Below, in pieces: positions 18,263-37,151 of a stretch of 64,000 bases of DNA. Origin of the DNA: Rhodoferax sp. GTDB taxonomy: Bacteria > Pseudomonadota > Gammaproteobacteria > Burkholderiales > Burkholderiaceae_C. The stretch is taken from positions 523 to 64,522 of the forward strand of contig NZ_JBDTEM010000147.1 in the NCBI RefSeq assembly GCF_039922535.1, read 5' to 3'. Below the pieces are notes generated by a model. The model worked only from the letters and a program-made list of their open reading frames with translations, searched no databases and had not been told where the DNA came from. Numbering within the stretch: position 1 is the first letter of the stretch; the number at the start of each line of letters is the position of its first letter. A program made the position numbers and the translations under genes.

Positions 18263-19204
18263 CTATGTCTCCAGCGAGTGCTCTACCAACATATCCACAC
18301 TGCCATCGTGCGCAAAGCCCAGGGCTTGGGCCAATGGCGTATGCAAGGGTGGGTAGGCGGCAAACAGGCGTTCAATCTGTGCATCCGGTGCATAGTGCAC
18401 CAACCCCCTGCGGTCGGCACCAAAGCGCGCGGCCAGTGCGTCCACCACCTCGGCCACGGCCAGGTGCAGCGCCGGCATTTGGTAGACGCGGCGCGCATCC
18501 AGCCGGGCCGGGTCTATGCAGGCGGCATGCAACAGGTTGTCCACGCAGGCACTCACGGAAATCCACCAGGCCTGGCCCGGGGCGGATACCGGCACCGTGA
18601 TGGACTGGCCGGCCCGCAGGCGCCAGAACAGCTGGCTCATGAAGGCCGACAACAGGCCTGCGCCCTCCCCTGGCCGCGCCACCACGCCGGGCACACGCAG
18701 CGAGCAGCCCTGCACCCAGCCCAGGCGGGTGGCATCGGCCACCAGGGCCTCGCCCATGAGCTTGTGGGTGCCGTAGCTCAGCGCGGGTGCGGGCTGTGTG
18801 GCTTCGTCCACCACCGCGGGCAAATTGGCGCCGTACACCGCCACGCTGCTGGCAAATACAAACCGGGGTGGCCGGGGTTGGGCACGCAGGTCTTCCAGCA
18901 GGCCCAGGGTCGCGTCCAGGTTGATGCTGCGGCCCAAGGCATAGTTTTTTTCCGCCAGCCCGCCGGGGCAACTGGCCAGATGGAACACCACGTCCACCGG
19001 GTCGGCGAATGCCTGGGCACGCAGGGCCGGGTCGGCAATGCTGCCCGCGAAATGGGTCACCCGGGCATCGCTGGGCGGCTGGGCAAACGCCAGGTCCATC
19101 AAGAGTAATTGGTCCACCGGCTGGCCTGCCAGGCCGTGTATCAACAGCTGCTGGACCAGCGCATGGCCCACAAAACCGGCGGCGCCGGTGACGACAATAC
19201 GCAT
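18263..19204 (-). CDS. NAD-dependent epimerase/dehydratase (FdeJ-like)
   Basis: VVTGAAGFVG, FHLAS, FASSVAVYG and SYGTHK (YxxxK). Confidence 0.88.
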   Translation of the reverse strand: MRIVVTGAAGFVGHALVQQLLIHGLAGQPVDQLLLMDLAFAQPPSDARVTHFAGSIADPALRAQAFADPVDVVFHLASCPGGLAEKNYALGRSINLDATLGLLEDLRAQPRPPRFVFASSVAVYGANLPAVVDEATQPAPALSYGTHKLMGEALVADATRLGWVQGCSLRVPGVVARPGEGAGLLSAFMSQLFWRLRAGQSITVPVSAPGQAWWISVSACVDNLLHAACIDPARLDARRVYQMPALHLAVAEVVDALAARFGADRRGLVHYAPDAQIERLFAAYPPLHTPLAQALGFAHDGSVDMLVEHSLET

Positions 19205-20202
19205 CAGCCGCCCCTGCCAGCGGCCAGCGGCACGACCTGCTGGTCGATGCTGCCGAACGGCCCGGCGCTGCCGTCTTCAAATAGCGCCTGCATGCGCACC
19301 CGCTCGCCGAAGCGCATGAAGGGCGTACTGGCCGCGCCCTGGTCAATCATCTCGATCACGCGGCGTTCCGCCAGGCAGGCCGAACCCGCAGAGCGCGCCG
19401 CGTTCGACACGGTGCCCGAACCCACGATACAGCCCGCCGTGAGCCGCCGGGTGCGCGCCGCATGGGCCACCAGCTCGCCAAAGCCGAAGCCCATCTCGCG
19501 GCCATGTGGTTCGCCGAACCGCTCGCCGTTGCGCTCCACTTTCAGATGCATGTGCACGCGGCCGTTGTGCCAGGCGGCACCAAGCTCGTCGGGCGTCACG
19601 GCCACGGGAGCGAAGGCGGTAGACGGCTTGGCCTGCAGAAAGCCGAAGCCGGTTTGCATCTCGTGCGGCCCCAGCGCGCGCAGGCTCCAGTCGTTGATCT
19701 GCACAACCAGGCGCACGGCGGCCAAGGCCTCAGCGGGCGTTGCGGCCATGGGCACGGGGCCGACGACCACGCCAAACTCGCCTTCGAAGTCGATGCCGTC
19801 GGCCTCGCTGGGCAGCGGCACGTCTGCATGCGGCCCCAGAAAATCATCGCTGGCACCCTGGTACATCACTGGCACGGTGTCGCCCTTGGGCATGGGCGGT
19901 GTGTTGAACGCGCGCTCCATCAGCTGCATATGGTTCAAAAAGGCCGAGCCGTCCAACCATTGCGGGCTGCGCGGCAAGGGCGCCAGGCACTGCTGTGGAT
20001 CGAAGACGAAGGCGTCGGCAGCCTGCCCGGTGTTGAGCGCATCGCTGCGCGCCTGCAGGGCCAGTGCGACGGTGTCCCAGCGCTGCAGGGCATCCAACAG
20101 GCTGGGGGCGATGTCGTGTGCGTCGCAGGCCAGGTGCTGGTCGTACGAGACGATGACGAGGCGGCCGTCGAGGTGGCCGTTGGCGAGTGTGGCGAATTTC
20201 AT
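19204..20202 (-). CDS. Fumarylacetoacetate hydrolase family protein (FdeI-like)
   Basis: WLDGSAF, MYQGASD, IDFEGEFGV, INDWSLR and QAKPSTAF. Confidence 0.92.
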   Translation of the reverse strand: MKFATLANGHLDGRLVIVSYDQHLACDAHDIAPSLLDALQRWDTVALALQARSDALNTGQAADAFVFDPQQCLAPLPRSPQWLDGSAFLNHMQLMERAFNTPPMPKGDTVPVMYQGASDDFLGPHADVPLPSEADGIDFEGEFGVVVGPVPMAATPAEALAAVRLVVQINDWSLRALGPHEMQTGFGFLQAKPSTAFAPVAVTPDELGAAWHNGRVHMHLKVERNGERFGEPHGREMGFGFGELVAHAARTRRLTAGCIVGSGTVSNAARSAGSACLAERRVIEMIDQGAASTPFMRFGERVRMQALFEDGSAGPFGSIDQQVVPLAAGRGG

Positions 20203-20213
20203 GGGTGTCCTGT

Positions 20214-21023
20214 TCAGCGGGGCAAGGCCATGAGGCCGTCGTCAAAAATCGCCACGGCCCGCGTCCAGCCAGCCGAGCCACGCCGCACCTTGTGCGGAAA
20301 GCAACTGATGAAGAAGCCGTGGCCGGGCAAGGCTTCCAGGTTGTGCAGTTTTTCCAGGTGGCAGTAGCCGATGTCGCGGCCCGCCTTGTGGCCTTCCCAG
20401 ATCAGCGCTTTGTTGCCGGTTTCGGCAATCTTTTTAGCGGTGTAGGAGAACGGAGCGTCCCAGCTCCAGGCGTCGGTACCGGTCAGACGCACACCTCGTT
20501 CCAGTAAATACATGGTGGCCTCGTAGCCCATGCCGCAACCGGCGGACACAAAGTCGTTGTGGCCATAGCGCGATCCGGCGCGGGTGTTGACCACCACAAT
20601 GTCCAGCGGCGCCAGCGTGTGGCCTATGCGCGCCAGCTCGGCCTCTACATCGGCTGCCGTCGCCACATAACCGTCTGGGAAGTGGCGGAAGTCGAGCTTC
20701 ACACCAGGCTGAAAGCACCACTCCAGCGGCACCTCATCGATGGTGATGGACGGTTTTTTCTCCCCGTTCTTGGCGTCCATGGTCGAATGGAAATGGTAGG
20801 GCGCGTCCAGGTGGGTGCCGCTGTGCGTGGTCATGGTCACCCACTCGGCGGCAGCGGCCTCGCCGTCCGGGTAGTCCTCCACCGTGGTGCCGGGAATCAT
20901 GGCCATGAACTCGGGCAAGGTGTCCTGGTGCTTCTGGTAAGTGATCTTAGGAGCCAAAGGTGGCGGGTCAGAGAGGACCTCGTTTTCCAGGAAGATCGAA
21001 AGGTCAATGAATTGGCGTGGCAT
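20214..21023 (-). CDS. Cyclase family metal-dependent hydrolase (kynurenine formamidase-like; FdeG-like)
   Basis: THSGTHLDAPYH (HxGTHxDAPxH), GTDAWSWD and HLEKLHNL. Start MPRQFIDLS at 21023. Confidence 0.92.
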   Translation of the reverse strand: MPRQFIDLSIFLENEVLSDPPPLAPKITYQKHQDTLPEFMAMIPGTTVEDYPDGEAAAAEWVTMTTHSGTHLDAPYHFHSTMDAKNGEKKPSITIDEVPLEWCFQPGVKLDFRHFPDGYVATAADVEAELARIGHTLAPLDIVVVNTRAGSRYGHNDFVSAGCGMGYEATMYLLERGVRLTGTDAWSWDAPFSYTAKKIAETGNKALIWEGHKAGRDIGYCHLEKLHNLEALPGHGFFISCFPHKVRRGSAGWTRAVAIFDDGLMALPR

Positions 21024-21034
21024 GTAGGGAATCC

Positions 21035-21826
21035 TCAATTTCCATCTGTTATCAAAGTGCCGCCGTCCACCACCAGGTTCTGCCCGGTGATGAAGGCACC
21101 GGCCGGGCTGGCCAGCATTACGGCTACGCCCGCCACCTCGTGGGGTTCGCCCACCCGGCGCAAGGGTGTAAGCGCCAGACGGCGCTGCATGAAGTCTGCG
21201 TTGCCCATCAAGCCGGTAGACAAAGGCGAGCGGATCAGGCCTGGCGATATGGCATTGACGCGGACCTGCTGTGGCCCCCACTCCACAGCCAGGTTGCGGG
21301 CCAGCTGTGCTAACGCAGCCTTGCTCAATCCGTACAAGCCGATAGAGGTGTTGCCGCGTAGACCGGCGATGCTGGACATCAGCACCACGCTGCCGCCGCC
21401 GCGATGGGCCATGCTGGGTATCACCCCCAGCGCCAAGCGCGCAGCGCCGCGCAGGTTGATGTCCCACACACGCTGCCAATCGGCATCACTGGCCTGCGCC
21501 AAGGGGCCAGCTGGCCCCTGCACACCCGCATTGCACACCAGTGCGTCAATGTGGCCGCGCCAGGCGCTGGCTTCGTGCACCAGCCGCGCTACCTGGGCCG
21601 CGTCCGCCATGTCGCAGCCCAGCGCCAGAGCCTCATGGCCCTGGGCTCGCAGCACGGCAACAGCCTCTTCGCAGGCCCCTGTCTGGATATCGGCCAACAC
21701 CACCGCTGCACCGTGGGCTGCCATGGCCTGTGCAATAGCCCAGCCCAGGCCTTGGGCGGCCCCGGTGACCAGGGCCACCTGGCCGGTCAGCCGGAACATT
21801 TCTGTAACGTGGGACAGGGCCACCAT
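21035..21826 (-). CDS. Short-chain dehydrogenase/reductase
   Basis: VTGAAQGLG, CNAG, SSIAG, YGLSK and RVNAISPG. Confidence 0.92.
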   Translation of the reverse strand: MVALSHVTEMFRLTGQVALVTGAAQGLGWAIAQAMAAHGAAVVLADIQTGACEEAVAVLRAQGHEALALGCDMADAAQVARLVHEASAWRGHIDALVCNAGVQGPAGPLAQASDADWQRVWDINLRGAARLALGVIPSMAHRGGGSVVLMSSIAGLRGNTSIGLYGLSKAALAQLARNLAVEWGPQQVRVNAISPGLIRSPLSTGLMGNADFMQRRLALTPLRRVGEPHEVAGVAVMLASPAGAFITGQNLVVDGGTLITDGN

Positions 21827-21827
21827 G

Positions 21828-22424
21828 TCAGTGACCCACCTCCGAGGCGCGGGCCTGCAGAGCCTCACGCAGCGCCGGCGTATAGGCTCCGTCCACCAGC
21901 ACAAAAAGCATGCGGCACATGCGGCCCGAGCGGTTGGCCCAGGCGTGGTTGGTGCCGCGTTGCACCACCACATCACCCTGGCGCAGCAGGGTGGCGCTGT
22001 CGTCCAGCACCAGGGTCATTTCGCCGTCTAGCACCACGCCGTAGTCCACCGACTCGGTGCGGTGCATCAGCGGATGCGGGGAATCGACGCGCACAGTGGA
22101 CGCACTGGCATCGCCAATCTGCGTGAAGGCGTCGTGCATCGCAGCGGCACCGTGGGCCAGGAAGTCTTCGGTATCGGGCGGGATGTCCACGACACGTATG
22201 CGGGTGCCCGCCTGCGGCGGTGGCAAGACCAGCGCGCCCAGGGTCGGGTCCGCGCCGTTGTCTATCTGTGCGGGCGTGCTCTGGGTGGACCATATCTCGT
22301 GGAACACGGTGCCCGGAATTTTCTCGATCGCCACCACCTTGGGCAGCAGACCGGCCTCGCTGACGATGGCTTTGCCTTGGGCGTCATGCCCGGTGACGAT
22401 GCGGCGGATGGGATGAAATGCCAT
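21828..22424 (-). CDS. Cupin domain protein (FdeH-like)
   Basis: IRRIVTGHDAQGKA, MHRTESVDYGVVLDGE and QRGTNHAWAN. Confidence 0.9.
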   Translation of the reverse strand: MAFHPIRRIVTGHDAQGKAIVSEAGLLPKVVAIEKIPGTVFHEIWSTQSTPAQIDNGADPTLGALVLPPPQAGTRIRVVDIPPDTEDFLAHGAAAMHDAFTQIGDASASTVRVDSPHPLMHRTESVDYGVVLDGEMTLVLDDSATLLRQGDVVVQRGTNHAWANRSGRMCRMLFVLVDGAYTPALREALQARASEVGH

Positions 22425-22438
22425 GCTGTTTGCCACCG

Positions 22439-23566
22439 TCAAATGGGCGCGGCCAGGGCCATCAGCGTCTCGCGCATGATGCGGCCGTGCTCGGCCTTGT
22501 CGCCACCAGTGATCTCGATCTCGCCCAGGCGCACGGAGTTCTCTACCACCATGCGGCAACGCTCCCAGCGCCGCACCTGGAAGCGCTCCAACGCCGACTG
22601 CAAGCCGCCGTCCGTATTCAGCTCGTCGGCCAACACGATCGCATCCTCGATGCCAATGCAGGCGCCAGACGCCATATGCGGCGTGGTGGCGTGGACCGTA
22701 TCGCCAATCAGCACAACCCGGTTTTGGTACCAGGGCTGGGGCATGAGCAGGCTTTCCAGCGGGCGGAAGACGATTTGCGCGTCTGCGTTGATCTGGGCTC
22801 GCACGCTTTGCATCAGCGGGGCGGAAAATGGCGCCAACAGGTCGGCCAGCATCTGCGGAAACCGCTGCGGGTCCACGCGGTCATTGTTCGCCCGGTCTTC
22901 GGTCACGAACAGGTACATCTCCTCTTGCGACACGGCGTTCACACCGGTCTTGACCTTGGGGCCCAGCCACATCATGGTGCGCTGCACCTCGGCAGGCCGG
23001 GGCAGCACCGCCCGCCACACGCACTGGCCGCTGTAGGCTGGCTGAGGGGCATCCGGGAACAAAGCCTTACGCACCTGGGAATACAGGCCATCGGCGCCTA
23101 TCACCAGGTCATAGCGCTGCTGGCTGCCATCGGTGAATTCCACGTCCACACCATCGGCATCCTGGCGCATAGAGGTGAAGCTGCAGCCCAGCCGCACCTG
23201 GGCACCCGATGCGCGGGTGGCATCGGCCAGTATCTTGGCCAGCACCGGCCGCATGATGCCGCCGCCGCCGGGCACGTCCGGCCCCGCGATGCGCGGCGTG
23301 GGCAGGCTGCCGATCTGATGGCCGGTAGGGGTGAACAAGTCCACCCCATCGGCTGCGAAGCCCTGGGCCAAAAACGCATCCAGCACGCCCAGCGTGCGAA
23401 AGGCGCGCAAGGTAGCGCCGCCCAGGCTGATGCCCGCGCCGTAGGAGCGCCAGCCCGAATCGATCTCAACCACATCCACCGCGCAGCCCTGCTTGCGCAA
23501 CTGTATGGCTGCCGCCATGCCCGAGAACCCCCCACCAATGATCAAAATCTTGTGTGCTGCTGTCAT
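22439..23566 (-). CDS. FAD-dependent monooxygenase (FdeE-like aromatic A-ring hydroxylase)
   Basis: IIGGGFSG, IGADGLYS and LIGDTVHATTPHMASGACIGIEDA. Confidence 0.9.
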   Translation of the reverse strand: MTAAHKILIIGGGFSGMAAAIQLRKQGCAVDVVEIDSGWRSYGAGISLGGATLRAFRTLGVLDAFLAQGFAADGVDLFTPTGHQIGSLPTPRIAGPDVPGGGGIMRPVLAKILADATRASGAQVRLGCSFTSMRQDADGVDVEFTDGSQQRYDLVIGADGLYSQVRKALFPDAPQPAYSGQCVWRAVLPRPAEVQRTMMWLGPKVKTGVNAVSQEEMYLFVTEDRANNDRVDPQRFPQMLADLLAPFSAPLMQSVRAQINADAQIVFRPLESLLMPQPWYQNRVVLIGDTVHATTPHMASGACIGIEDAIVLADELNTDGGLQSALERFQVRRWERCRMVVENSVRLGEIEITGGDKAEHGRIMRETLMALAAPI

Positions 23567-23640
23567 TCTTCTATCTCCGTTGTATCTGTTAAGACTTGCG
23601 CAGTGCCCGATTGGCGGGCCTGTCGCCCTTCTGTTGCCCT

Positions 23641-23991
23641 TCAGTCGGCCGCTGCGTAAGTCGTGTCTATCAATCTCACATAACCCTGGACGTCTATCGC
23701 GTGGGCAACGGCCTGCAGCGACTGGCCCAAACACGGCCCCAGCGTGCAGGCCCCGGTATCCACATCAAACAGCGCACCGTGGGCAAAGCACACGATGGCA
23801 TCGCCCGCGTGGTTCAGGTACGCATCCTTGCGCCAGGCCATGGGGCTGTTGGCGTGCGGGCAGTTGTCACGGTACACCCGCAGCCCATCACCACAGCGCA
23901 CCGCAAACAGTGTGTCCCGGCCCGCCTGCCCGGGGTCAAAGCCGCGCGACGTGCCCGGAGGCACATCGTCCAGATGGCACAGCAGCGTCAT
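23641..23991 (-). CDS. Rieske 2Fe-2S ferredoxin (FdeD-like)
   Basis: CPH...CFAHGALF...G.C..GPC. Confidence 0.9.
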   Translation of the reverse strand: MTLLCHLDDVPPGTSRGFDPGQAGRDTLFAVRCGDGLRVYRDNCPHANSPMAWRKDAYLNHAGDAIVCFAHGALFDVDTGACTLGPCLGQSLQAVAHAIDVQGYVRLIDTTYAAAD

Positions 23992-24003
23992 CAGACTGCG
24001 CCT

Positions 24004-24948
24004 TCAGCGCGCCGCACCGGGTGGTGGGCCACCGGATGGCGCCCACTTGTCGCGCTGCTGGAACAAGAATAGCTGCGACGCGTCCGCGCCCATGGGTGCC
24101 TCGCGGGCCAGCCATTCGGCGTCGTGCAGGTCCATGTCGGCGTCGTACTCCACATGGCAGCCCAGCGGGCTGTTGAAGTACCAAAACCAGTTGGAGCCAA
24201 AAAGATGGCGCCCCGGTCCCCAGAAGGACTGGTAACCCTTGTTGACGAAGCGGGTGCCGGCCAGCATCACCTCGGTAGGCCCGCCCATGTGGAAGGTGAA
24301 GTGCTCGCACCCCTTCATGAAAGGTGGCGTCTGGATCATGAACAGCGTGTGGTGGTCGGCCGTGCCGGCCGGGCGCAGAAACGGGCCCACACCGGTAAAG
24401 CGGTCGGTGCACACAAAGCCCAGGCGCTGGTAGAAGGCTTCGGCCTTGGCCGCGTCGGGCACGAAATACACCACGTGCGATAGGGAGCGCGGCAAGGCCT
24501 GCATGGCCGGCGTGACAGCCACCTGGTTGGCCGGACGCTGCGGCGCGGCGCCTGGTGCGTTGATGGTTTCAGCGGGCAGCTGGATAGACCGGCGCACAGT
24601 GAGCTGAAAGGCCAACGCAAAGCCCATGTCATCCACGGCCAGCACGCGGCCCTGGGCATCGCGGCGCACCTCGCGGTCGCGGCCCAGCTCGGCGGCAATT
24701 GCGTCCAGCGTCGCTGCGTCGGCCACGCCGTACACGGTCTCGCGCAGCATGCTGGCCGTGCCCATGGCAGGCGGCAGGCGGGGGTCGTCCTTATGGCGGA
24801 CTTCCACGGCCGTGCCGTCCAGCGCCTCGAAACGGCCACCTTCGGCGGTGACGCCCACCGGCGTCAGGCCGTAATCGGTCAGGTACTGGATACAGGCGGC
24901 CACGTCGTCCACGCCAAAGACCAGTGCATCGGGTCCAATAATGTTCAT
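24004..24948 (-). CDS. VOC-family extradiol ring-cleavage dioxygenase (FdeC-like)
   Basis: Two-domain VOC with metal ligands in LSHVV, DHHTLF/EHFTF, GPGRH and HVEYDAD. Confidence 0.85.
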   Translation of the reverse strand: MNIIGPDALVFGVDDVAACIQYLTDYGLTPVGVTAEGGRFEALDGTAVEVRHKDDPRLPPAMGTASMLRETVYGVADAATLDAIAAELGRDREVRRDAQGRVLAVDDMGFALAFQLTVRRSIQLPAETINAPGAAPQRPANQVAVTPAMQALPRSLSHVVYFVPDAAKAEAFYQRLGFVCTDRFTGVGPFLRPAGTADHHTLFMIQTPPFMKGCEHFTFHMGGPTEVMLAGTRFVNKGYQSFWGPGRHLFGSNWFWYFNSPLGCHVEYDADMDLHDAEWLAREAPMGADASQLFLFQQRDKWAPSGGPPPGAAR

Positions 24949-25004
24949 AGCTTGTTGCTCAGTTCAAAAGTAAGAAAAAGGTCGGCATGCCAGAGCGCGG
25001 TGCA

Positions 25005-25835
25005 TCAGCCCTGCCCGGCATACAGCACCGCTTCCGTCGCCAGCAGGCCAAAGTGGCCCGATGCGGTAGCCAGGCCCTTGGCCACCAGCGTGTCGCGCAC
25101 CCAGGTCTGCCATTGCGTCCACAGGCTACGGGCGGCGGCCTCGTCGTCCAGCCAGAATTCATCGATGCCATCCAGCGGGGCCGTCGTGCCGGGTTTGGCC
25201 ATGGCATCGTTTTGCACATAGCGGCGCAACTTGGCGGCTACAGGCCAGGCCTGCAGCGCGGCGGCGCCTTGCTGCCAGGCGGCGCGGAATGCTTCGGGAT
25301 CGGCATCCGGTGCGCGCTGGATGCAGAAGAACAGCTTGCAGGCGCCCGCCAGCGGGGCGCGCTGGGCGACCACCTCCCGCTCGCGCACGGTAAGCGGCAC
25401 CACCGTGCTCTGGTCCACAAAGTTGTCTTCATCGCCCTTCAGGTTCTGCAGGTAGAACGGCGTTTGCAACGAACGACCCAGCGCGCCAAAGTCCGGGAAC
25501 CAGATCTGGGTGACGAAATCGCGGTTCAACGCAAATGGGTCGCTGCCCGGTGCGGAGCTGCGGTACTGCCCGTCGAACACCGCGTTCTGCACATAACGGC
25601 GCGGGGCATTCTGCGGGTCGGTGGCGATGTAGCGCAACACCATTTCGCCATGCACATTGCGGATGTGCTGGCGGTGTTCCACCATGCTGGTGCCGGGTCG
25701 GCGGCGGCCCAAGATCATCAGCTTCAAATCAAACGGCCCCGGGACCTGCGGCGCCGACTGGGCATAGTCCGAGGGTGCCGCACCCAGCGCCAGGGAAGCC
25801 AGCAGCAGGTGCCGCCGGTGGATCATTGTGTTCAT
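25005..25835 (-). CDS. Tandem EthD-like (dimeric alpha/beta barrel) protein with possible Tat signal
   Basis: Two repeats of K-L..RxP...F/H...RRYVQN...; N-terminus MNTMIHRRHLLLASLALGAA. Confidence 0.7.
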   Translation of the reverse strand: MNTMIHRRHLLLASLALGAAPSDYAQSAPQVPGPFDLKLMILGRRRPGTSMVEHRQHIRNVHGEMVLRYIATDPQNAPRRYVQNAVFDGQYRSSAPGSDPFALNRDFVTQIWFPDFGALGRSLQTPFYLQNLKGDEDNFVDQSTVVPLTVREREVVAQRAPLAGACKLFFCIQRAPDADPEAFRAAWQQGAAALQAWPVAAKLRRYVQNDAMAKPGTTAPLDGIDEFWLDDEAAARSLWTQWQTWVRDTLVAKGLATASGHFGLLATEAVLYAGQG

Positions 25836-25840
25836 CTAAA

Positions 25841-25885
25841 TACTCCTATTTTTATAGCTGCTTGCGCACGTATTACCTGCGCCAT
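25841..25885 (-). repeat. Repeat copy inside the island that supplies the EthD gene RBS
   Basis: Minus strand TGGCGCAGGTAATACGTGCGCAAGCAGCTATAAAAATAGGAGTA, followed by TTTAG-ATG. Confidence 0.7.
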
Positions 25886-27042: not shown

Positions 27043-27064
27043 AACTGCTTTCTCAGGGTAAAAA

Positions 27065-28252: not shown

Positions 28253-30639
28253 GCTGTTGTCTCCGTGGCGGCCGTCTGCGCGGCGGGTTTGAGTAGGAAG
28301 TGGGCCAACGCGGGCAGCAGGATCAATGCACCCAGCATGTTCCAGAGGAACATGAAGGCCAGCAGCAAACCCATGTCGGCCTGGAACTTGATAGGGCTGG
28401 CCACCCAGGTGATGACGCCAATCGCCAGCGTCACGCCGGTCAGCATCACCACCTTGCCGGTGAACAGCAGCGCCCGGTAATACGCCTGCGACAGGCTAGC
28501 CCCGGCACGCAGCTGCGCCAGGGTGACGCTGAGGATGTACAGCGCGTAATCCACGCCTATGCCCACACCTAGCGCAATCACCGGCAGCGTCGCCACCTTG
28601 ACGCCCATGCCGAAGGCCACCATCAGCGCCTCTGCCAAAAACGATGTCAGCACCAGTGGCAGCACCGCCACCACCACCGCGCGCCAGGAGCGGAAGGTAA
28701 TGAAGCACAGCAGCACCACCGCGCCATACACCATCAGCAGCATCTGGTGCCAGGCATGTTTGACGACGATATTGGTGGCCGCCTCGATACCGGCATTGCC
28801 CGCCGCCAGCAGAAACTGCACGTCCGCTGTGTCGTTTTCTTTGGCGAAGGCTTCCACATGCTCAACCACGCGGGTCAGGGTGTCGGCCTTGTGGTCGCGC
28901 AGGTAGACGTACAGCGTCAGCAGGCCGCAGCTGTCGTTGTACAGCCCACGCGGTGCGCCAGCGGTCACGGTGTTGAGCATGTCCTGGTTGTTCAGGAACT
29001 CGTACCACTTGGGGTTGCCCTCGCTCAGGCCCGTCAGCACGCGGCGGTTCAGCAGTGCCAGAGTGTTGGTGGACTCCACGCCGTCGAGCTGGCGCAGCTG
29101 CCACTCCAGCGCATCCACCTTGTTCAGCGTCTCGTACTGGGAGCACTGGCCTTCGGGCGTCTTGACCATCACGGCCAGCACGTCACTGCCCGCGCCATAG
29201 GCGCTGTTGATGAAGGCCACGTCGCGGTTGTAGCGGCTGTCGGCGCGCAGCTCGGGAGCGCCCGGGTCCAGGTCGCCAATCTTCAGCTGCGACGCCACCA
29301 GCGCACCGGCCACGCCCAGCAGCACGCCACCGGCCACGGCCGCTGTCGCCCAGCGGCGCTGGGTAAAGCGGTCCAGCCAGGCCCACAGCGGGCTGCGCGC
29401 CGCGCCGCTGGCATCGCCCGCCTCGGCCCGTAGGCTGCGCTGCGCGGCAGCGGGGCTGACGCCGGTGTAGCTGAGCAAAATCGGCAGCAGGATCAGGTTG
29501 GTGAAGATCAGCGCCGCCACGCCCAGGCTGGCCGCCAGGGCCAGCTCACGGATGGCCTGGATGTCGATCACCAGCAGCACCGCAAAGCCCACGGCATCGG
29601 CCAGCAGCGCCGTCAGCCCGGCCAAAAACAGGCGGCGAAAGGTAAAGCGTGCCGCCACCAGGCTGGGCATGCCACGGCCTATGTCCTGCATGATGCCGTT
29701 CATCTTCTGCGCGCCGTGGCTCATGCCGATGGCAAACACCAGGAACGGCACCAGGATGGAATACGGGTCGAGCTGCTGGCCCAGCAAGGGCAGCAGGCCC
29801 AGTTGCCACACCACCGCCACCATGGACGCCGCCACCACCAGCACGGTGGAACGCACACAGCGGGTGTAGGCAAACACCATCACGCTGGCAATCGCCACCG
29901 CCAGCGCAAAGAACACCAGCACCGCCTGCACGCCGTCGATCAGGTCGCCCACGATCTTGGCAAAGCCGGTGATGTGCACCGACACCCCTTGTGCGCTGTA
30001 CTTGGCACGCAGCAGCTCCAGGCGTTGCGACAATGCGCGGTAGTCCATCGCATTGCCCTGGGCATCGCGGGTCAGCAGCGGCACAAACAGCACGCTGGAG
30101 CGCCGGTCCAACGCCACGGTCTGGCCGATCTCGCCCGAGCGTTCGATATTCGCTGCCAGTTGCTGCAGGCTGGCTGCGCCGCCGTCGTAGCCCTCCGGGA
30201 TCACCGGGCCTCCTTCCAGCCCATCCTCGGTCACACCGACCCAGCGGGTCGATGGCGTCCAAAGCGACTTCATGCCCACGCGGTCCACGCCGGGTACCAG
30301 GAACACTTCGTCGCTGATCTTGCGCAGGGTCTCCAGATAGCTCGCGTCGTAAATACTGCCTTTGGGGTTGGCCACCGCAATGCGCAAAGCATTGCCCAGG
30401 CCGCGCAGCTCGCTTTGGTGCTGCAGGTAGTTCTGGATATAGGGATGGTGGCCGGGGATGGTCTTCTCGAAACTCGCATTCAAGTCCAGACGGGTCGCCT
30501 GCCAGCCCAGCAGCAGCGTGACCAGCGCGCAGATGCAGACCACCCACAGGCGGTGGTTGAACAGCAAGCGCTCCACCACCGAGCCAGATTGTGTATTGAA
30601 TGCCGCTGCTGGGGGCATGGGTGATGTTGCCGCCATCAT
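28249..30639 (-). CDS. RND/MMPL-family exporter-like protein (partner of DUF1302/DUF1329/YCF48)
   Basis: Two TM clusters, AIGMSHGAQKMNG and GIGVDYALY. Confidence 0.9.
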   Translation of the reverse strand: MMAATSPMPPAAAFNTQSGSVVERLLFNHRLWVVCICALVTLLLGWQATRLDLNASFEKTIPGHHPYIQNYLQHQSELRGLGNALRIAVANPKGSIYDASYLETLRKISDEVFLVPGVDRVGMKSLWTPSTRWVGVTEDGLEGGPVIPEGYDGGAASLQQLAANIERSGEIGQTVALDRRSSVLFVPLLTRDAQGNAMDYRALSQRLELLRAKYSAQGVSVHITGFAKIVGDLIDGVQAVLVFFALAVAIASVMVFAYTRCVRSTVLVVAASMVAVVWQLGLLPLLGQQLDPYSILVPFLVFAIGMSHGAQKMNGIMQDIGRGMPSLVAARFTFRRLFLAGLTALLADAVGFAVLLVIDIQAIRELALAASLGVAALIFTNLILLPILLSYTGVSPAAAQRSLRAEAGDASGAARSPLWAWLDRFTQRRWATAAVAGGVLLGVAGALVASQLKIGDLDPGAPELRADSRYNRDVAFINSAYGAGSDVLAVMVKTPEGQCSQYETLNKVDALEWQLRQLDGVESTNTLALLNRRVLTGLSEGNPKWYEFLNNQDMLNTVTAGAPRGLYNDSCGLLTLYVYLRDHKADTLTRVVEHVEAFAKENDTADVQFLLAAGNAGIEAATNIVVKHAWHQMLLMVYGAVVLLCFITFRSWRAVVVAVLPLVLTSFLAEALMVAFGMGVKVATLPVIALGVGIGVDYALYILSVTLAQLRAGASLSQAYYRALLFTGKVVMLTGVTLAIGVITWVASPIKFQADMGLLLAFMFLWNMLGALILLPALAHFLLKPAAQTAATETTA

Positions 30640-31709
30640 GGTGCCGTCCCCAATGGCACGGCGATCGCACCGCGTACCGTCAGCGCCAGCAGCCGTCCAT
30701 CGGTCAACGGCAAAACGCCAGCGGGCGAAGGCAGCGCTGCGCCAGGCAGCAAGCTCAGAGTACCGTCACGCAGGGCAAACAACTGCCCGCCCTGGTTGGC
30801 CAGCACAGCCCCCTGCCCCGCGCGCAATGCCGACGCGGTGAATGAAATCGGCGCAGCCGCCGCAATGGCCAACCAGGTGGTGCCTGCATCGGTGGAGCGC
30901 CATGCATTACCGCGCAGACCGGCCAGCACGATCTCGCCATGGGCGGGCAGTTCGGCCGTAAAAAAGCTGCCCTGGTAGGGCGTGGTCAGCCGGGTGAAGT
31001 GTTGGCCAGCGTCTTGCGATTGCAGCACCAGACCCTGCTCGCCAGCGATCACCACGGTGTTGCCCTGGGCGCGCACGGTGTACAGGTGCAAGGCCTTGGG
31101 GTTGTCCAGATGCTGGCCCCAGGGCTTCCAGCTGTGGCCGCCGTCTTCGGTCATGAATGCCAGGTTGTACGCACCCACCACGATACCGTGCTGGGCGTCA
31201 AAGAAATGCAGGTCCAGCAAAGGCTTGTCGGCACCGTCGGCCACCAGGCGCTGGGCGTTCTTCACCGCGGCGGCGTCACCGCGGGCCTGGGCCTCGTCCA
31301 ACACCAACTGGGCAGCGGCCTTGCCTTCCAGTTGGCGCACCCAGGTCTCGCCACCGTCCACCGTGGCCAGCACCACGCCGCTGTGGCCCGTGGCCCAGCC
31401 ATGCTGGGCATCCACAAAGCGCACGGCGGTCAGCGTCACGCTGGTGGGCACCTGGGCCTGGCGCCAGTGGGCCGCCGCATCGTCTGACAGCAGCACAATG
31501 CCGCGCTCGCCTACCGCTACCACACGCGACCCTGCCAGGGCCGCGCCCAACAACACCGCCTGGGCGGCTTGCGGGCTGACCAAGGCAGGGCGGTCCAGCG
31601 CACTACCCACTGGTGCAGCCCATGCTGCGGGCAGTGCCAGCGCAGCGGCGCACACCAGCAGGGCACGCAGTCGGCCCGTTTCCGGTGGCTTCAAGGAAAT
31701 CAGAAGCAT
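30636..31709 (-). CDS. YCF48-related beta-propeller (BNR repeat) protein
   Basis: VGERGIVLLSDD, TVDGGETW, TEDGGHSW and STDAGTTW Asp-box repeats. Confidence 0.9.
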   Translation of the reverse strand: MLLISLKPPETGRLRALLVCAAALALPAAWAAPVGSALDRPALVSPQAAQAVLLGAALAGSRVVAVGERGIVLLSDDAAAHWRQAQVPTSVTLTAVRFVDAQHGWATGHSGVVLATVDGGETWVRQLEGKAAAQLVLDEAQARGDAAAVKNAQRLVADGADKPLLDLHFFDAQHGIVVGAYNLAFMTEDGGHSWKPWGQHLDNPKALHLYTVRAQGNTVVIAGEQGLVLQSQDAGQHFTRLTTPYQGSFFTAELPAHGEIVLAGLRGNAWRSTDAGTTWLAIAAAAPISFTASALRAGQGAVLANQGGQLFALRDGTLSLLPGAALPSPAGVLPLTDGRLLALTVRGAIAVPLGTAP

Positions 31710-31722
31710 GTTGTCCTACGCC

Positions 31723-33087
31723 TCAGCGAACGCTGTCGCCAGCCATGGCATCGGGCGAGAAAGTGGAGTCGGCGTAGCGTGGCTGCAGCGTGTATTGCGC
31801 CGACTTGCTGTTGTACAGGTCACCCACATAGGCGGTGCCCGACAGCAGGTCGTTGAAGCCGAAAGCTCCGGTTACCGTGCCTGGCAGATCGGGCGCCACA
31901 AAGGTGGCGGTCCAGATGGACTTCCAGAGCTGGCCGTTGGAATCCCAGCGGTCGGCCAGCACACAGGCCCAGGTGTCTTCGTCGCAGTAATAGCGGCTCT
32001 TGGCGGCAGGGTGGCGTTGACCGGCCCGCAGGCTGGCATTCACCACCCAGACCCGGTGCAGCTCCCAGCGCATGAAGTCGGGATTCACGCCGTTCTTGCC
32101 CAATACCTCGGCATCGGTCTTGGCTTGTAGCAGGCGGTTGCCGTTGTAGGGGATGAACATCTCCTTCTTGCCTGCCAGCTTGAAGTCGAAGCGGTCCAGC
32201 TTGCCGGACCAGGTCTGCACCTCGTCAAAGCTCATCAGCCCGGCGGTCACTGGCGACGGCGTATCGCAGCAAGGGTTGGGCAGCTTGCGCACACGGCGCT
32301 GGCCGGTCAGGTAGACCCAGGACTGGGTCTTGGCCGGGTCGATCTGGTCGCGGCCGGTGATGGCTTCGCCCGCGCGTATCGGAGGGCCCACGTTGACCAG
32401 GCGGATCAGTTGGGTCTCGGGTGCCTTGGCAAAAGACTCCAGCGTGACGTCGGGGTAGTAGTACGGAATCTGGAAGTCGATGACGCCGTCGGTGGTCATC
32501 ACCGGCTTGCCGTCTGCCGTGATCTGGTACTGGGTGACCTTGGACTGGAAGGAAGTACCGCGCCAGCGCAGCATGTGGTTCCATATCACTTCGGCGCCCA
32601 CTTTGGGCAGGGGGAAAGGAATACCGCCCACCACATCGATCGGCACATCGCCCTGCAGCTTGCCACGGGTAGCGTTTTTCTGCGTGTTGTCGTAAACCCA
32701 CTGCGGCGCGGCGGCGGTGCGGTGCGTCTTGTACACATCTACCCGGTAGTCGGGGTATTTCTTCAGCAAAGCCATCACGCCGTCGCTGAGCTTGTCGGCG
32801 TATTGGTCGGCGTTCTTGCCGGTGATGCTGGTCAGCGGCTTTTCGTCCTTGAACGGGTCGCCGCGGCGGCCGCCGGCGTTGTCGCCAGCAATCGCGGTGG
32901 TCAGGCCGCCGGTCCAGGTGGGAATGCTGCCGTCTTTGTTGGCGGCTTTTTCAGCACCCAGCGGTGTCAGCTCGGTCTTCAGTTTCGCGGCCTCTTCCGC
33001 GCTGACGGCGGCCCAGCTTGGCAGGCTGGTGGCAGCGCCCATCAGCAGCCCGCAGGCCGCCAGCAGGGTATGGTGGTTTTTTTTCAT
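31723..33087 (-). CDS. DUF1329 periplasmic protein
   Basis: AVSAEEAAKLKTELTPLGAEKA, YKTHRTAA, GQRRVRKLP and WELHRVWVV. Confidence 0.92.
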   Translation of the reverse strand: MKKNHHTLLAACGLLMGAATSLPSWAAVSAEEAAKLKTELTPLGAEKAANKDGSIPTWTGGLTTAIAGDNAGGRRGDPFKDEKPLTSITGKNADQYADKLSDGVMALLKKYPDYRVDVYKTHRTAAAPQWVYDNTQKNATRGKLQGDVPIDVVGGIPFPLPKVGAEVIWNHMLRWRGTSFQSKVTQYQITADGKPVMTTDGVIDFQIPYYYPDVTLESFAKAPETQLIRLVNVGPPIRAGEAITGRDQIDPAKTQSWVYLTGQRRVRKLPNPCCDTPSPVTAGLMSFDEVQTWSGKLDRFDFKLAGKKEMFIPYNGNRLLQAKTDAEVLGKNGVNPDFMRWELHRVWVVNASLRAGQRHPAAKSRYYCDEDTWACVLADRWDSNGQLWKSIWTATFVAPDLPGTVTGAFGFNDLLSGTAYVGDLYNSKSAQYTLQPRYADSTFSPDAMAGDSVR

Positions 33088-33130
33088 GGTGTCTCCGGTA
33101 ATTCCAAATGGGTAGGGGTTAGCGGGGGGG

Positions 33131-34843
33131 TCAGAACGTGCGACGCAGGTTCAATGAGATGAAGTTGCGGTCGCCCAGCGGGTTGCCGTCGCTGAACTGC
33201 CCTGTGCTGTAGTCGTTAAAGGGCTTGCTGGTGCCGATGTAGCGGGTGTAGTTCAGCCCGAATTGCCAGGTATTGCGGAAGTTGCCTTCAATGCCAATGT
33301 TGGCGCTGCCCGTGCCCTTTGGGCCCCAGGCGGTGACGCTGGAACGACCCGACAGGGTGTAGCGCAGGCCCACAGGCACGTTGATGTCCACACCGTCAAA
33401 CACCTGCCGGTAGGTCGGGGTGTAGACAAACTGCACGATGCTGGCGTCGCGGGTGCGGCCCTGGTCGATCTCGTTGTCCGGGTCGTTTTTATGCAGCACG
33501 CGGTTCCAGGCCAGCTCGGCCGCCAGGCCGCTTTCCTTGGCCAAGAAGTTCGGGCCAAAGCTGGCAATGGTGGACAGGTTGATGTGCGCGGTGCGTCCAG
33601 TCGGATACGCCGGCCGGGCCGTACCATTGGGGCCGAAATACACAGCGTTGTTCACATTCAGCGGCATGTTGTCGCGCAGCGAGGCTTCGGCGGACACATT
33701 GAAGTCACCCACCGAACGCGACACGCTGGCGCCTGCCACATCGATGTCGCTGCCGAATACATAGAACCAGCTGCTGTCCGTAGCGGGTGCACCGGGGTTC
33801 AGCCGGGAATAGAGCTGGCCAGTCTTATCGTGGTAACGCGCGTAGTAAAAACCCAGGTCGGTCTCGTCCAACCGCCATTTCGCCTGCAGGCCAAATTGGC
33901 CGCTGTTGCGTGGCTTGTCGTCTGCGCCTGGCTGGGCCACATAGTTGCCACCAATGCCGGGAATGGATGCCGGAATGCCGACAAACTCCGGCCCGGTAGC
34001 CCCCCAAGGCACATTGGCGGTGGAGAAATAGCTGCCGGCTGCAGGCACACGACTCTCCTTCCACTGGAATTGCACATAGCCCCCCAGGCTGAAGTTGGGC
34101 GCCACCTGCCACTGGCCCGACAGCTGCGGCACCGGAATGGCGATTTCCTTGAACTGCGCGTTCGGTGACGACAGCAGCTTGGACACGTCCGTCGGCCCCT
34201 GCGCAGCGGCAATGCCGTTGTCGCCAAAGAACAGGCTTTCGCCGTACAGCAAGCTGTGCTGGCCCAGCCGACCGCTGAGCTTGCCACCGTTGGCCAAGGT
34301 GGTGCTGCCAAACACGAATGCATCCATCAGCTCTGCCTTGCGGCCCGACTCCTCCTGGGTGTGGTCGGCGAACTGGTTGTAGGGTGACTGGCCGTTGGTC
34401 GGGTCGTTGGGCGCATCGGTGCCGCGCTGGTAGGCCCGGTCGTACCAGCCAGCGGCGCTGATCCGCAGGCCAAACCGGCCTTGGTACACCGCATCGAACT
34501 CGGACAACAGATCCAGCCGCTCCGACACAAAACCGCGCTGGCTGAAGTTCTGGTCGCCCGCATTGAAGTTGATGGCCTGCGGCGCACCCTGGGCGCTGAA
34601 AGACTGTGTCAGCGCCGGGTCCGCATTGCGCAGCCGGTACATGGTGCTGGCCTTGACCGTGTTGTCGAAGCGCAGGCTCAGGTCCGGGTTGCCGCTGTCC
34701 AGCTCCATGGACTGGGCGCCTTGCACGGCCCCCAGCGCCGCGCAGGCCATGGCGGTACGCGTCATCAGCTGAACGCGGGAATAAGGGGAATAGGGGCGCG
34801 GAGCCCGGGCGGACGGGGTCCGCTTCCATAAACGTGGGTGCAT
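33131..34843 (-). CDS. DUF1302 outer-membrane beta-barrel uptake channel (FdeA-like)
   Basis: LSLRFDNTVK, NAGDQNF, WGESLFF-like LYGESLFF and C-terminal ISLNLRRTF. GGAGA RBS before ATG 34843. Confidence 0.9.
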   Translation of the reverse strand: MHPRLWKRTPSARAPRPYSPYSRVQLMTRTAMACAALGAVQGAQSMELDSGNPDLSLRFDNTVKASTMYRLRNADPALTQSFSAQGAPQAINFNAGDQNFSQRGFVSERLDLLSEFDAVYQGRFGLRISAAGWYDRAYQRGTDAPNDPTNGQSPYNQFADHTQEESGRKAELMDAFVFGSTTLANGGKLSGRLGQHSLLYGESLFFGDNGIAAAQGPTDVSKLLSSPNAQFKEIAIPVPQLSGQWQVAPNFSLGGYVQFQWKESRVPAAGSYFSTANVPWGATGPEFVGIPASIPGIGGNYVAQPGADDKPRNSGQFGLQAKWRLDETDLGFYYARYHDKTGQLYSRLNPGAPATDSSWFYVFGSDIDVAGASVSRSVGDFNVSAEASLRDNMPLNVNNAVYFGPNGTARPAYPTGRTAHINLSTIASFGPNFLAKESGLAAELAWNRVLHKNDPDNEIDQGRTRDASIVQFVYTPTYRQVFDGVDINVPVGLRYTLSGRSSVTAWGPKGTGSANIGIEGNFRNTWQFGLNYTRYIGTSKPFNDYSTGQFSDGNPLGDRNFISLNLRRTF

Positions 34844-34927
34844 GCTTTGTCTCCGGTTTGTTGTCTTACGGTGGGCTGCAAATTGCGGTTTGCCCCGACC
34901 TGGAAACGGAATGTACGGAGGGGTAAA

Positions 34928-34976
34928 GCATTCGTAAAATGGATTCTTTCGATTCCACAAATCCACGCCACTAATA
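34928..34976 (-). promoter_or_regulatory. nod-box-like LysR binding site
   Basis: TATTAGTGGCGTGGATTTGTGGAATCGAAAGAATCCATTTTACGAATGC matches the rhizobial nod-box consensus YATCCAYNNYRYRGATGNNNNYNATCNAAACAATCRATTTTACCAATCY at 32 of 41 defined positions with no gaps. Confidence 0.8.
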
Positions 34977-34994
34977 CCAAGGGTTACCCCGAGC

Positions 34995-35903
34995 ATGCGA
35001 TTCAACAAACTCGACCTCAACCTGCTGGTGGCGCTGAACGCCTTGCTGACCGAGCGCAACATCAGCCGCGCGGCTGTGCGCGTGCACCTCAGCCAGCCCG
35101 CCATGAGCAATGCGCTGGCACGCCTGCGGGCTTATTTCGAAGATGAATTGCTGGTGCCATCGGGGCGCCAACTGATCTGGACACCGCGCGCCGAAGCGCT
35201 GGTGGAGCCAGTGCGCGAAGTGCTGATGCGCATCGACAGCACGATTGCCGTGCAGCCCCGCTTTGACCCAGCCACCGCCTCGCGGGCCTTCACCCTGCTG
35301 GTGTCCGACTTCACCACCACGGTCTTCGTACCCGCCCTGCTGGAGCGGCTGTACCACGAGGCGCCGGGCGTACGCATAGACCTGCGCATGCAGTACACCA
35401 ACCCCGCCGAAATTCTGGAACAAGGCGATGCCGACCTGCTGATCATTCCCGCCCAGTACGCCTCACCCGACCACCCGTCACAGCCGCTGTTTGAAGAAAA
35501 CTATATGTGCGTCACCTGGACCGGCAATCGGCATATCCAGGACAGACTGAGCTTTGAGGACTACCTGGCTGCAGGCCATGTGCTGGCCAATTTTTCCGGC
35601 GCTGCGCAGACACCGGCATTCGACGGCTGGTTTCTGGAACGCTTTGGCATCACCCGCCGGGTCGAAGTCACGGCCCCGACCCTGGCCGCCCTACCCAGCC
35701 TGGTCGTGGGCACCGACCGCATCGCCACCGTGCACCGCCGGCTGGCCGAGCGGGTGCGCCACCTGTTGCCCATCCGCATCTGGGAGCCGCCGCTGGAAAT
35801 CCCCAAGCTGGTCCAGATGCTGCAATGGCACAAATACCGCAACAACGACTTGGCCCTAGCCTGGCTGCGCAACTGCGCGCTCGAAGTGGGCGCGCAAATC
35901 TAG
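34995..35903 (+). CDS. NodD/FdeR-like LysR-family transcriptional regulator
   Basis: MRFNKLDLNLLVALNALLTERNISRAA...LSQPAMSNALARLR; divergent from the operon across a nod-box-like site. Confidence 0.92.
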   Translation: MRFNKLDLNLLVALNALLTERNISRAAVRVHLSQPAMSNALARLRAYFEDELLVPSGRQLIWTPRAEALVEPVREVLMRIDSTIAVQPRFDPATASRAFTLLVSDFTTTVFVPALLERLYHEAPGVRIDLRMQYTNPAEILEQGDADLLIIPAQYASPDHPSQPLFEENYMCVTWTGNRHIQDRLSFEDYLAAGHVLANFSGAAQTPAFDGWFLERFGITRRVEVTAPTLAALPSLVVGTDRIATVHRRLAERVRHLLPIRIWEPPLEIPKLVQMLQWHKYRNNDLALAWLRNCALEVGAQI

Positions 35904-37085: not shown

Positions 37086-37136
37086 GGATGGGCTTTCAAT
37101 GAGGCTGCAGGGCGACGCTCTGCTGCACCCGGTTTA

Positions 37137-37151
37137 TCAAGATCCATGCCC
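37137..37151 (-). promoter_or_regulatory. Sigma54-like promoter for hmp (-12 variant GA)
   Basis: GG-CATGGATCTT-GA on the minus strand (GG-N10-GA instead of GC), divergent from norR. Confidence 0.5.

Follow-up and report, generated by a model that had tools for sequence, protein, structure and literature searches.

A probable fde-type flavonoid degradation operon in a rhizosphere Rhodoferax, with a DUF1302/DUF1329/BNR/RND cassette in the position of fdeA

The DNA analysed here (the window, 64,000 nucleotides (nt) of contig NZ_JBDTEM010000147.1 from Rhodoferax sp.) contains a 17.6 kb block made of 15 minus-strand genes (18263-34843) and a divergent gene for a LysR regulator (34995-35903, plus strand), as delimited by the listing of open reading frames (ORFs), codon-position GC and Pfam scans. 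We consider it quite probable that this block, which belongs to a rhizosphere bacterium of the Rhodoferax/Albidiferax type, is orthologous to the fde operon of Herbaspirillum seropedicae, that is, a flavonoid-inducible pathway that would destroy the A-ring of flavonoid-type 7-hydroxy-benzopyranones. It appears to be an fde subtype in which a four-gene DUF1302/DUF1329/BNR/RND cassette replaces FdeA, in which two optional accessories are present (a tandem-EthD protein with a twin-arginine (Tat)-type signal and an SDR oxidoreductase), and which was apparently inserted beside the flavohaemoglobin gene hmp. What was computed here is the orthology, the order of the genes, the conservation of the operator and how the modules are distributed across genomes. 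An earlier note on this DNA had listed the 15 families as co-oriented; ORFs and Pfam place all of them on the minus strand at the positions collected in Table 1, next to the LysR gene that the note had left out.

Orthology to the fde operon of Herbaspirillum seropedicae

As reference we used the fde locus of H. seropedicae (L174), whose FdeR is 99% identical to the published FdeR; the latter and the PfdeA sequence were taken from the plasmid file accompanying PMC10799723. The genome scan with FdeR had missed H. seropedicae, and its locus was reached through a search with the FdeE orthologue of H. frisingense, which led to a named H. seropedicae protein. In this locus fdeR is followed by ten genes, encoding a Phenol_MetA_deg protein, an alpha/beta hydrolase, a VOC protein, a Rieske protein, a FAD monooxygenase, an MFS transporter, a cyclase, a cupin, a fumarylacetoacetate hydrolase (FAH) family protein and an epimerase, which correspond to fdeA-J. 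BLASTP in both directions gave single mutual matches for nine operon genes of the window and for the regulator, with identities between 47 and 88%, and the identities to eight further Herbaspirillum loci were much the same. The earlier note had proposed that the enzyme families are those of the H. seropedicae operon, and the reciprocal matches bear this out one to one for FdeB-J and FdeR; the low identity to the Fde enzymes that it had named as evidence to the contrary was not what we found. Both systems have in common a divergent NodD-like FdeR with a conserved operator and the adjacency of the genes for the VOC (FdeC) and Rieske (FdeD) proteins, and the same chemistry is predicted for both (C8 hydroxylation, extradiol A-ring cleavage and hydrolytic breakdown). 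They differ in that the window lacks FdeA and carries the four-gene cassette in its place, has the MFS gene (fdeF) ahead of fdeB, shows a swapped order of cupin and cyclase, and adds the tandem-EthD gene between fdeB and fdeC and the SDR gene after the cupin. The regulator is also only 48% identical, over the full length of 302 aa, to the published FdeR, of which it is the reciprocal best match.

The LysR protein of the window and the H. seropedicae FdeR have the N-terminus MRFNKLDLNLLVAL in common. In the intergenic region between regulator and operon, the segment 34925-34982 could be aligned to PfdeA/fdeO of H. seropedicae and to the intergenic regions of 10 further FdeR-linked loci, keeping the core AAAATGGATT...AATAC and facing the operon in the same orientation as in H. 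seropedicae, which points to a conserved candidate FdeR operator. Binding of the H. seropedicae FdeR to its operator is constitutive, and the protein activates transcription in the presence of naringenin, chrysin or daidzein (PMC10799723). A putative minus-strand promoter could be placed by eye, with TTTACG as the -35 (34938-34933), a 17-nt spacer and TACATT as the -10 (34915-34910). A palindrome, GGGTTAACCC, was also observed just upstream of the fdeR start, in the window as GGGTTACCCC at 34981-34990; it is kept at the same position in the cassette-type loci L010, L011, L024, L026, L038 and L050 and is absent from the Herbaspirillum/Variovorax-type loci of the same alignment. Because of the reciprocal one-to-one matches and the conserved operator, the assignment of the cluster as an fde orthologue is strongly supported at the sequence level.

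Further searches added some detail to the predicted functions of the proteins listed in Table 1. The nearest solved relatives of the FdeB-like hydrolase are Ayg1-like hydrolases, the 2,6-dihydroxypseudooxynicotine (DHPON) hydrolase and AntI, and the protein is predicted to be a retro-Claisen C-C hydrolase. The VOC protein has more than 3000 homologues, with around 80% identity across orders, and a distant relation to 2,3-dihydroxybiphenyl (extradiol) dioxygenases, and the Rieske protein keeps the cluster ligand motifs CPH...CFAH. The monooxygenase, which by its similarity would be of the flavonoid 8-hydroxylase type, passes the cut-off of the NCBIfam subfamily PRK06847, a generic "hypothetical" model; in NCBIfam no specific model was found for any Fde protein, and this generic one matches the monooxygenase alone. 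In the sequence search of the Protein Data Bank (PDB) the cyclase fell in the isatin hydrolase family, and the FAH-family protein was related to PDB 3lzk, to diketo-deoxyrhamnonate hydrolase and to a beta-diketone hydrolase.

To place the locus among its relatives, one-genome-per-species contigs were scanned with FdeR, and metagenomes with the regulator of the window itself. These scans recovered FdeR relatives from 193 species-level genomes and from 190 metagenome stretches, next to the same set of core genes, and the best 80 of each were analysed (160 loci). Homologues of FdeC and FdeE number in the thousands, and the order cassette-hydrolase-VOC directly after the FdeR operator was found in at least 20 genera. 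The clustering is not due to chance, since the same gene set stands beside FdeR homologues in well over 100 genomes and metagenome contigs. The core also reaches beyond the Betaproteobacteria, as seen in the myxobacterium Archangium minus, in which an fde-like core (L089, 5838-17179) comprises a LysR regulator, the hydrolase, a VOC protein 80% identical to that of the window, a Rieske protein, a cupin and two FAD monooxygenases, joined by genes of the amidohydrolase and acetoacetate decarboxylase families. In Burkholderia sp. Ax-1719 (L012, 2200-19400) a single fdeR is flanked by two paralogous fde-like enzyme sets, the second of which has diverged further, with a monooxygenase and a VOC protein 48% and 55% identical, respectively, to those of the window; this set may have a second substrate specificity.

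The closest relative was found in a metagenome-assembled genome (MAG) of an uncultured Albidiferax (L081, hereafter the sister MAG), with a collinear locus at 85-89% nucleotide and 89-97% protein identity and with the same flanks as in the window, a Pyr_redox_2 oxidoreductase and a chemoreceptor. The top named match of the VOC protein is likewise from an uncultured Albidiferax sp. (93%). Albidiferax is equivalent to Rhodoferax, of the Comamonadaceae, so the earlier attribution of the DNA to this family holds. The window DNA was present in four rhizosphere metagenome runs at around 100% of the sampled words, and weaker matches were detected in leaf-litter and groundwater runs.

Table 1. Features of the block and of its edges, with the basis of each assignment (percentages are amino acid identities to the H. 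seropedicae proteins)
Feature	Position	Strand	Basis or remark
Pseudogene fragment, decayed duplicate of the hmp 3' end	18097..18251	-	Left edge of the block, immediately past the epimerase stop codon
NAD-dependent epimerase/dehydratase-family protein, 313 aa, FdeJ orthologue	18263..19204	-	FdeJ 47%; Pfam Epimerase; last gene
Fumarylacetoacetate-hydrolase-family protein, 332 aa, FdeI orthologue	19204..20202	-	FdeI 70%
"Cyclase"-family metal hydrolase, 269 aa, FdeG orthologue	20214..21023	-	FdeG 88%
SDR oxidoreductase, 263 aa, optional accessory	21035..21826	-	Pfam adh_short_C2
Cupin, 198 aa, FdeH orthologue	21828..22424	-	FdeH 73%; Pfam Cupin_2
Group A FAD monooxygenase, 375 aa, FdeE orthologue	22439..23566	-	FdeE 66% over 373 aa
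Rieske [2Fe-2S] ferredoxin-like protein, 116 aa, FdeD orthologue	23641..23991	-	FdeD 52%; Pfam Rieske
VOC extradiol dioxygenase, 314 aa, FdeC orthologue	24004..24948	-	FdeC 80%
Tandem-EthD protein, 276 aa, optional fde accessory	25005..25835	-	Pfam EthD, twice
Alpha/beta hydrolase, 385 aa, FdeB orthologue	25885..27042	-	FdeB 80%
MFS transporter, 395 aa, FdeF orthologue	27065..28252	-	FdeF 49%, reciprocal; Pfam MFS_1; relocated upstream of fdeB
RND inner-membrane transporter, 796 aa, MMPL/HAE3-type, AmeD-like	28249..30639	-	Pfam MMPL
YCF48/BNR beta-propeller protein, 357 aa, AmeC-like	30636..31709	-	Pfam PSII_BNR
DUF1329 LolA-like periplasmic protein, 454 aa, AmeB-like	31723..33087	-	Pfam DUF1329, E = 2e-116; signal-like N-terminus
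DUF1302 outer-membrane protein, 570 aa, AmeA-like	33131..34843	-	Pfam DUF1302, E = 1e-111; first gene of the operon
Candidate fdeO-like (nod-box-like) operator	34925..34982	-	Alignment; in the 151-bp fdeR-operon intergenic region
fdeR-like NodD-type LysR regulator, 302 aa	34995..35903	+	Pfam HTH_1 and LysR_substrate; divergent from the operon
3' end of the intact flavohaemoglobin gene hmp (35904-37085)	35905..36058	-	Right-hand copy of the direct repeat

The envelope cassette and its alternation with FdeA

The FdeA of H. seropedicae is an outer-membrane protein of the Phenol_MetA_deg family, and no homologue of it was detected in the window (best tblastn E = 0.014, spurious). In its position beside fdeR, the operon begins with the four cassette genes, the first of which was given its start at an ATG with a GGAGA ribosome-binding site, in agreement with the 573-aa orthologue of the sister MAG. 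The RND gene overlaps each of its neighbours by 4 nt, and its product is 76-83% identical to the RND proteins of other fde-linked cassettes.

The distribution of both transport modules was then compared in the 160 FdeR-anchored loci. FdeA was found in 57 of them and the cassette in 45, and no locus had both; the two sets of 80 gave the same pattern when counted separately, with 37 and 28 loci, respectively, for the genomes, 20 and 17 for the metagenomes, and none with both in either set. The FdeA-type loci belong mostly to Herbaspirillum, Paraburkholderia, Trinickia, Pandoraea and Ralstonia, and the cassette-type loci mostly to Rubrivivax, Ideonella, Aquabacterium, Piscinibacter, Roseateles, Ramlibacter, Caenimonas, Rhodoferax, Methylibium, Derxia and Duganella. 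Since 45 of the 160 loci carry the cassette instead, FdeA seems to be a replaceable transport accessory of the pathway. The cassette alternates strictly with a passive channel in one and the same place of the operon, and the simplest reading of this is that it would provide another means for the substrate to pass the envelope. This changes how the extra genes of the window are to be seen, as the earlier note had taken both a full uptake module and the MFS gene for additions to fde: the former is an alternative to FdeA, and the latter is the canonical fdeF in another position.

The cassette has the same four families in the same order as AmeABCD of Castellaniella defragrans, a tetrapartite HAE3-type RND transporter encoded in a monoterpene catabolic island (PMC6394551), i.e., a DUF1302 protein, a LolA-like DUF1329 protein, a COG4447/YCF48-like propeller and an RND protein of around 790 aa. 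This likeness rests on families, gene order and published descriptions. Each system lies within a catabolic island for hydrophobic plant metabolites, monoterpenes in one case and flavonoids in the other, but in the window the cassette genes are those of the catabolic operon that lie nearest to its promoter, and the cassette stands in place of a passive channel.

An appreciable possibility, if short of likely, is that the cassette is an efflux or tolerance device against membrane-active flavonoids or their intermediates, in which case the MFS transporter alone would import the substrate and its passage through the outer membrane would be passive. Deletion of AmeABCD lowered the tolerance to monoterpenes and raised the accumulation of Nile Red, and its authors interpreted the system as an exporter (PMC6394551). 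The four genes are also cofit in the fitness data of other bacteria, from which an exporter of an envelope component was proposed (bioRxiv 10.1101/072470), RND proteins are generally exporters, and Variovorax strains that do not degrade flavonoids are inhibited by them (PMC11069340). By contrast, the fact that cassette and FdeA never coincide and take the same slot is explained most simply by the substitution of one entry channel for another, and the conservation of the RND protein, at around 80% among fde-linked cassettes across families, suggests a dedicated co-evolution with the pathway. On this balance, entry or capture of the substrate is rated slightly above efflux, although the cassette as an uptake module is unproven.

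Accessory genes and variable slots

The tandem-EthD protein starts with MNTMIHRRHLLLASLALGAAPSDYAQS, a twin-arginine-type signal (RRHLLLASLALGAA...AQS). Its family is small, with 134 matches in 5.8 billion proteins, and so far was found only inside fde-type clusters: in seven out of seven fde-type contexts outside the window, the gene lies exactly between those of the hydrolase and the VOC protein. Six of these contexts were looked up (a betaproteobacterial MAG, Methylibium rhizosphaerae, Burkholderia, Derxia lacustris, Aquabacterium sp. J223 and a metagenome contig), and the seventh is a locus of the metagenome set. That the protein is always periplasmic was considered and rejected, as around 44 of 105 homologues, as called, carry the twin-arginine signal and 48 have no N-terminal extension.

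A sequence search of the PDB with the tandem-EthD protein gave no match, and its structure was modelled with AlphaFold (AF2) from 117 sequences. The model (predicted local distance difference test, pLDDT, of 89) consists of two ferredoxin-like domains, and its top Foldseek hits in the PDB were the anthrone-oxidase-like 5f9p, the chalcone isomerase of Eubacterium ramulus (3zph/4c9s) and chlorite-dismutase-like proteins, at E values around 1e-7, template modelling (TM) scores of 0.45-0.56 and identities of 10-14%. Both 5f9p and 3zph/4c9s are tandem ferredoxin-like (Dabb) proteins, and two alpha+beta barrel domains are predicted for the EthD protein, a resemblance that is generic to the fold; the E. 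ramulus enzyme acts on flavonoids, and the EthD protein differs from these structures in its Tat-like signal. The model thus offers a lead that the protein might act on a flavonoid or polyketide-like ring. A bolder proposal joins this lead to the cassette. The cassette would act inwards across the envelope, or capture the substrate there, for flavonoids of poor solubility and would replace FdeA in function, and the Tat-signal EthD protein would be a new periplasmic flavonoid-processing enzyme; the latter may be, for instance, a cofactor-free isomerase or oxygenase that works before or alongside the attack on the A-ring. We regard the two parts together as unlikely, if worth stating.

The SDR protein had no BLASTP match in the H. 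seropedicae locus, and an SDR gene directly after the cupin was also found in L072, L083, L091 and L093. Its identity to the SDR protein of the sister MAG is only 67%, against around 90% for the neighbouring proteins. Three slots distinguish the sister MAG from the window, as it has a SnoaL-like gene between those of the MFS transporter and the hydrolase, lacks the tandem EthD, and carries a TctC gene and the divergent SDR gene after the cupin. These differences, together with the recurrence of the genes elsewhere, indicate that the extra genes come from a shared and shuffled accessory pool of the fde clusters and are not a unique expansion; by gene content and position, both the tandem EthD and the SDR are optional accessories that recur among fde clusters. 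The view of the earlier note, in which tandem EthD and SDR expand the pathway and the added genes point to a different or broader substrate range, is not supported, as the MFS gene is canonical, the cassette replaces FdeA, and both accessories are found again in corresponding places of other fde-like clusters and are swapped in the sister genome.

Some relatives are richer than the window, with second FAD monooxygenases, MBL-fold hydrolases or VanA-type oxygenases. Many cassette-type loci contain a second, distant FAD monooxygenase (25-31% identical to that of the window) between fdeR and the DUF1302 gene (L010, L011, L017, L019, L024 and others, at around 8700-8900; L085 at 1-920 and 7553-8770), and some have a third one after the RND gene; the window and the sister MAG have neither. 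In a metagenomic locus with cassette and tandem EthD (L093, 3694-6770), the FdeE-type monooxygenase is absent, and two VanA-type Rieske oxygenases and a reductase are found instead, which hints at the formation of the catechol by O-demethylation of methoxylated flavonoids.

Proposed pathway, substrate and setting of the block

In the pathway that we propose, the FdeR-like regulator, seated on the conserved operator, would turn on the 15-gene operon upon binding a flavonoid, and the substrate would cross the envelope helped by the cassette and the FdeF-like MFS permease. The FdeE-like monooxygenase would then hydroxylate C8 to give the 7,8-catechol, and the FdeC-like VOC dioxygenase would open the A-ring by extradiol cleavage. 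Ferredoxins of the XylT type, encoded in meta-cleavage operons, re-reduce the iron of the dioxygenase, and by analogy the small Rieske protein possibly keeps the iron of the VOC dioxygenase reduced. The FdeB-like retro-Claisen hydrolase and the FAH-family hydrolase would cut C-C bonds of the ring-fission product, and the IfcD-like cupin, the "cyclase", the SDR and the epimerase-family reductase could process what is left of the molecule, a pyranone/B-ring fragment, on its way to central metabolism. For 8-hydroxylation, dioxygenation and the reaction of the cupin we rely, by analogy, on published work on Fde and Ifc: FdeE is a broad-range C8-hydroxylase that acts on flavanones, flavones, flavonols and isoflavones (PMC11303751), and daidzein is 8-hydroxylated by IfcA and dioxygenated by IfcB, after which IfcD cupins convert the resulting pyranone (PMC11069340). 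All other enzymatic steps are our inference, and so are the part given to the Rieske protein, the transport direction and the substrate itself.

The ifc system belongs to another root-associated member of the Comamonadaceae, Variovorax sp. V35 (PMC11069340), and follows the same oxidative A-ring route, with a FAD monooxygenase, a VOC dioxygenase, cupins and an alpha/beta hydrolase, whose genes stand together with those of transporters and regulators in a hotspot that spans around 33 genes. IfcA is reported to be isoflavone-specific and only 36% identical to FdeE (PMC11069340), whereas the monooxygenase of the window is 66% identical to FdeE and thus would be of the FdeE type rather than of the IfcA type, the latter being known to us by description. 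The terminal peptides of IfcA and IfcB, as derived from primers in the published work, had no match in the window or in 88 loci.

Several points weigh against a flavonoid-inducible fde pathway as proposed. With an identity of only 48% between the regulators, the effector could differ from that of FdeR. The promoter hexamers match at 8 of 12 positions, under the threshold of the scan tool, so that the promoter is weak and putative, and none of the RNA runs searched contains the region. A knockout of the alpha/beta-hydrolase homologue of Variovorax V35 had no phenotype on daidzein (PMC11069340), which makes the assignment of the hydrolase step uncertain. Finally, the sole functional data on the cassette type favour export or tolerance over uptake (PMC6394551; bioRxiv 10.1101/072470).

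The first of these points also bears on an alternative that we consider quite improbable, namely that the same enzymology serves a substrate that is not a flavonoid but another plant or humic compound of the 7-hydroxy-benzopyranone or resorcinol type, be it a coumarin (e.g., umbelliferone), a chromone, a xanthone or a stilbenoid product, and that the fde name is misleading for an aquatic or rhizosphere Rhodoferax lineage. The effector-binding regulator is only 48% identical to FdeR, the distribution of the family is very broad and extends to myxobacteria and to metagenomes of groundwater and leaf litter, and the accessory genes vary from genome to genome, up to the variant with VanA-type O-demethylases in place of the flavin monooxygenase. 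However, the catalytic core is 66-88% identical to enzymes of an operon genetically shown to degrade naringenin, the substrate range of FdeE already covers four flavonoid classes, and the organism of the window occurs in rhizosphere metagenomes.

Regarding the origin of the block, a comparison with blastn revealed a direct repeat of the 3' end of hmp at its edges (18097-18251 against 35905-36058, 72% identity over 155 nt, E = 7e-18, same orientation). The left copy has its reading frame broken by stop codons, and the intact hmp ends one base past the stop codon of the regulator gene, so that regulator and operon are bracketed exactly by the repeat. This arrangement suggests that the block was inserted at hmp by a single crossover (Campbell-type). 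No integrase or transposase was found inside the block, the hmp fragment is absent from the sister MAG, and in 173 loci screened hmp was not found adjoining fdeR elsewhere. At the right edge, hmp (globin and FAD/NAD reductase domains) and a divergent sigma-54 activator with a GAF domain (NorR-like), together 35904-38785, form a nitric oxide detoxification pair that abuts the fde block.

Inside the operon, the intergenic gaps are below 75 nt and several junctions overlap by 4 nt. A scan for promoters and terminators was uninformative within the operon, with terminator-like hits at only around twice the expectation from shuffled sequence and located in coding sequence, and past the last gene a terminator-like site (18116-18101) and a promoter-like site (18026-17999) fit an end of the operon before the next gene. 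Between the Rieske and FAD monooxygenase genes, a stretch of around 73 nt (23593-23665) has no counterpart in the sister MAG, where both genes overlap; two promoter-like hexamer pairs (23592-23538) start at its downstream edge, and an internal promoter is possible. That cassette and catabolic genes are two units side by side with separate regulation, as these hexamers and the location of the cassette on the opposite side of fdeR in a few genomes (L030-L032, L072) could suggest, is highly improbable given the short gaps and overlaps throughout the block, the order conserved after the operator across genera and the hmp repeat that brackets the block as one.

The rest of the window is ordinary chromosome, with his genes, murA, the Mla system and glutamate synthase. 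The operon is followed on the same strand by genes for a Pyr_redox_2 oxidoreductase (16661-17992) and a methyl-accepting chemotaxis protein (MCP) chemoreceptor (14735-16558), both kept in the sister MAG, where the oxidoreductase gene begins 40 nt past the epimerase gene. The oxidoreductase was considered as reductase of the Rieske protein and rejected, since its conservation is limited to the sister MAG, its family matches are weak and the hmp fragment stands between it and the operon; a link of the chemoreceptor to the pathway, e.g., as its chemotaxis receptor, is unsupported. Farther away, a type II dehydroquinase gene beside a divergent IclR regulator (13278-14656) resembles a quinate/shikimate-type catabolic pair close to the fde block. 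A gene for a VanA-type Rieske oxygenase (vanillate O-demethylase-like, 4282-5448) lies within an ATP-binding cassette (ABC) transporter unit (2655-6553) that has an NMT1-like binding protein, an ATPase and a permease, and this unit may serve for uptake and demethylation of another aromatic or methoxy-aromatic compound.

Flavonoids are key signals and antimicrobials at plant roots, and the genes for their aerobic breakdown by bacteria have been characterised in only two systems, fde and ifc. For this genome the outcome is a confident functional annotation rather than a surprise, and its main points of interest are that FdeA and the cassette alternate and that the tandem-EthD family has so far appeared only in fde-type clusters. 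In our literature search no paper was found that describes fde clusters with a DUF1302 cassette or a tandem EthD, so the cassette-type clusters are a common subtype that is undescribed as far as we could find. The picture that emerges is that of a highly conserved and very widespread fde core with two mutually exclusive envelope versions and variable slots for small accessory genes. The swap with FdeA gives a long-unexplained cassette a defined substrate class, an inducer and a natural functional alternative, by which its direction of transport becomes experimentally testable, and the tandem-EthD family is a candidate new component of the pathway. If capture by the cassette and a periplasmic role of the EthD protein were both true, they would constitute an undescribed envelope-level stage of flavonoid catabolism.

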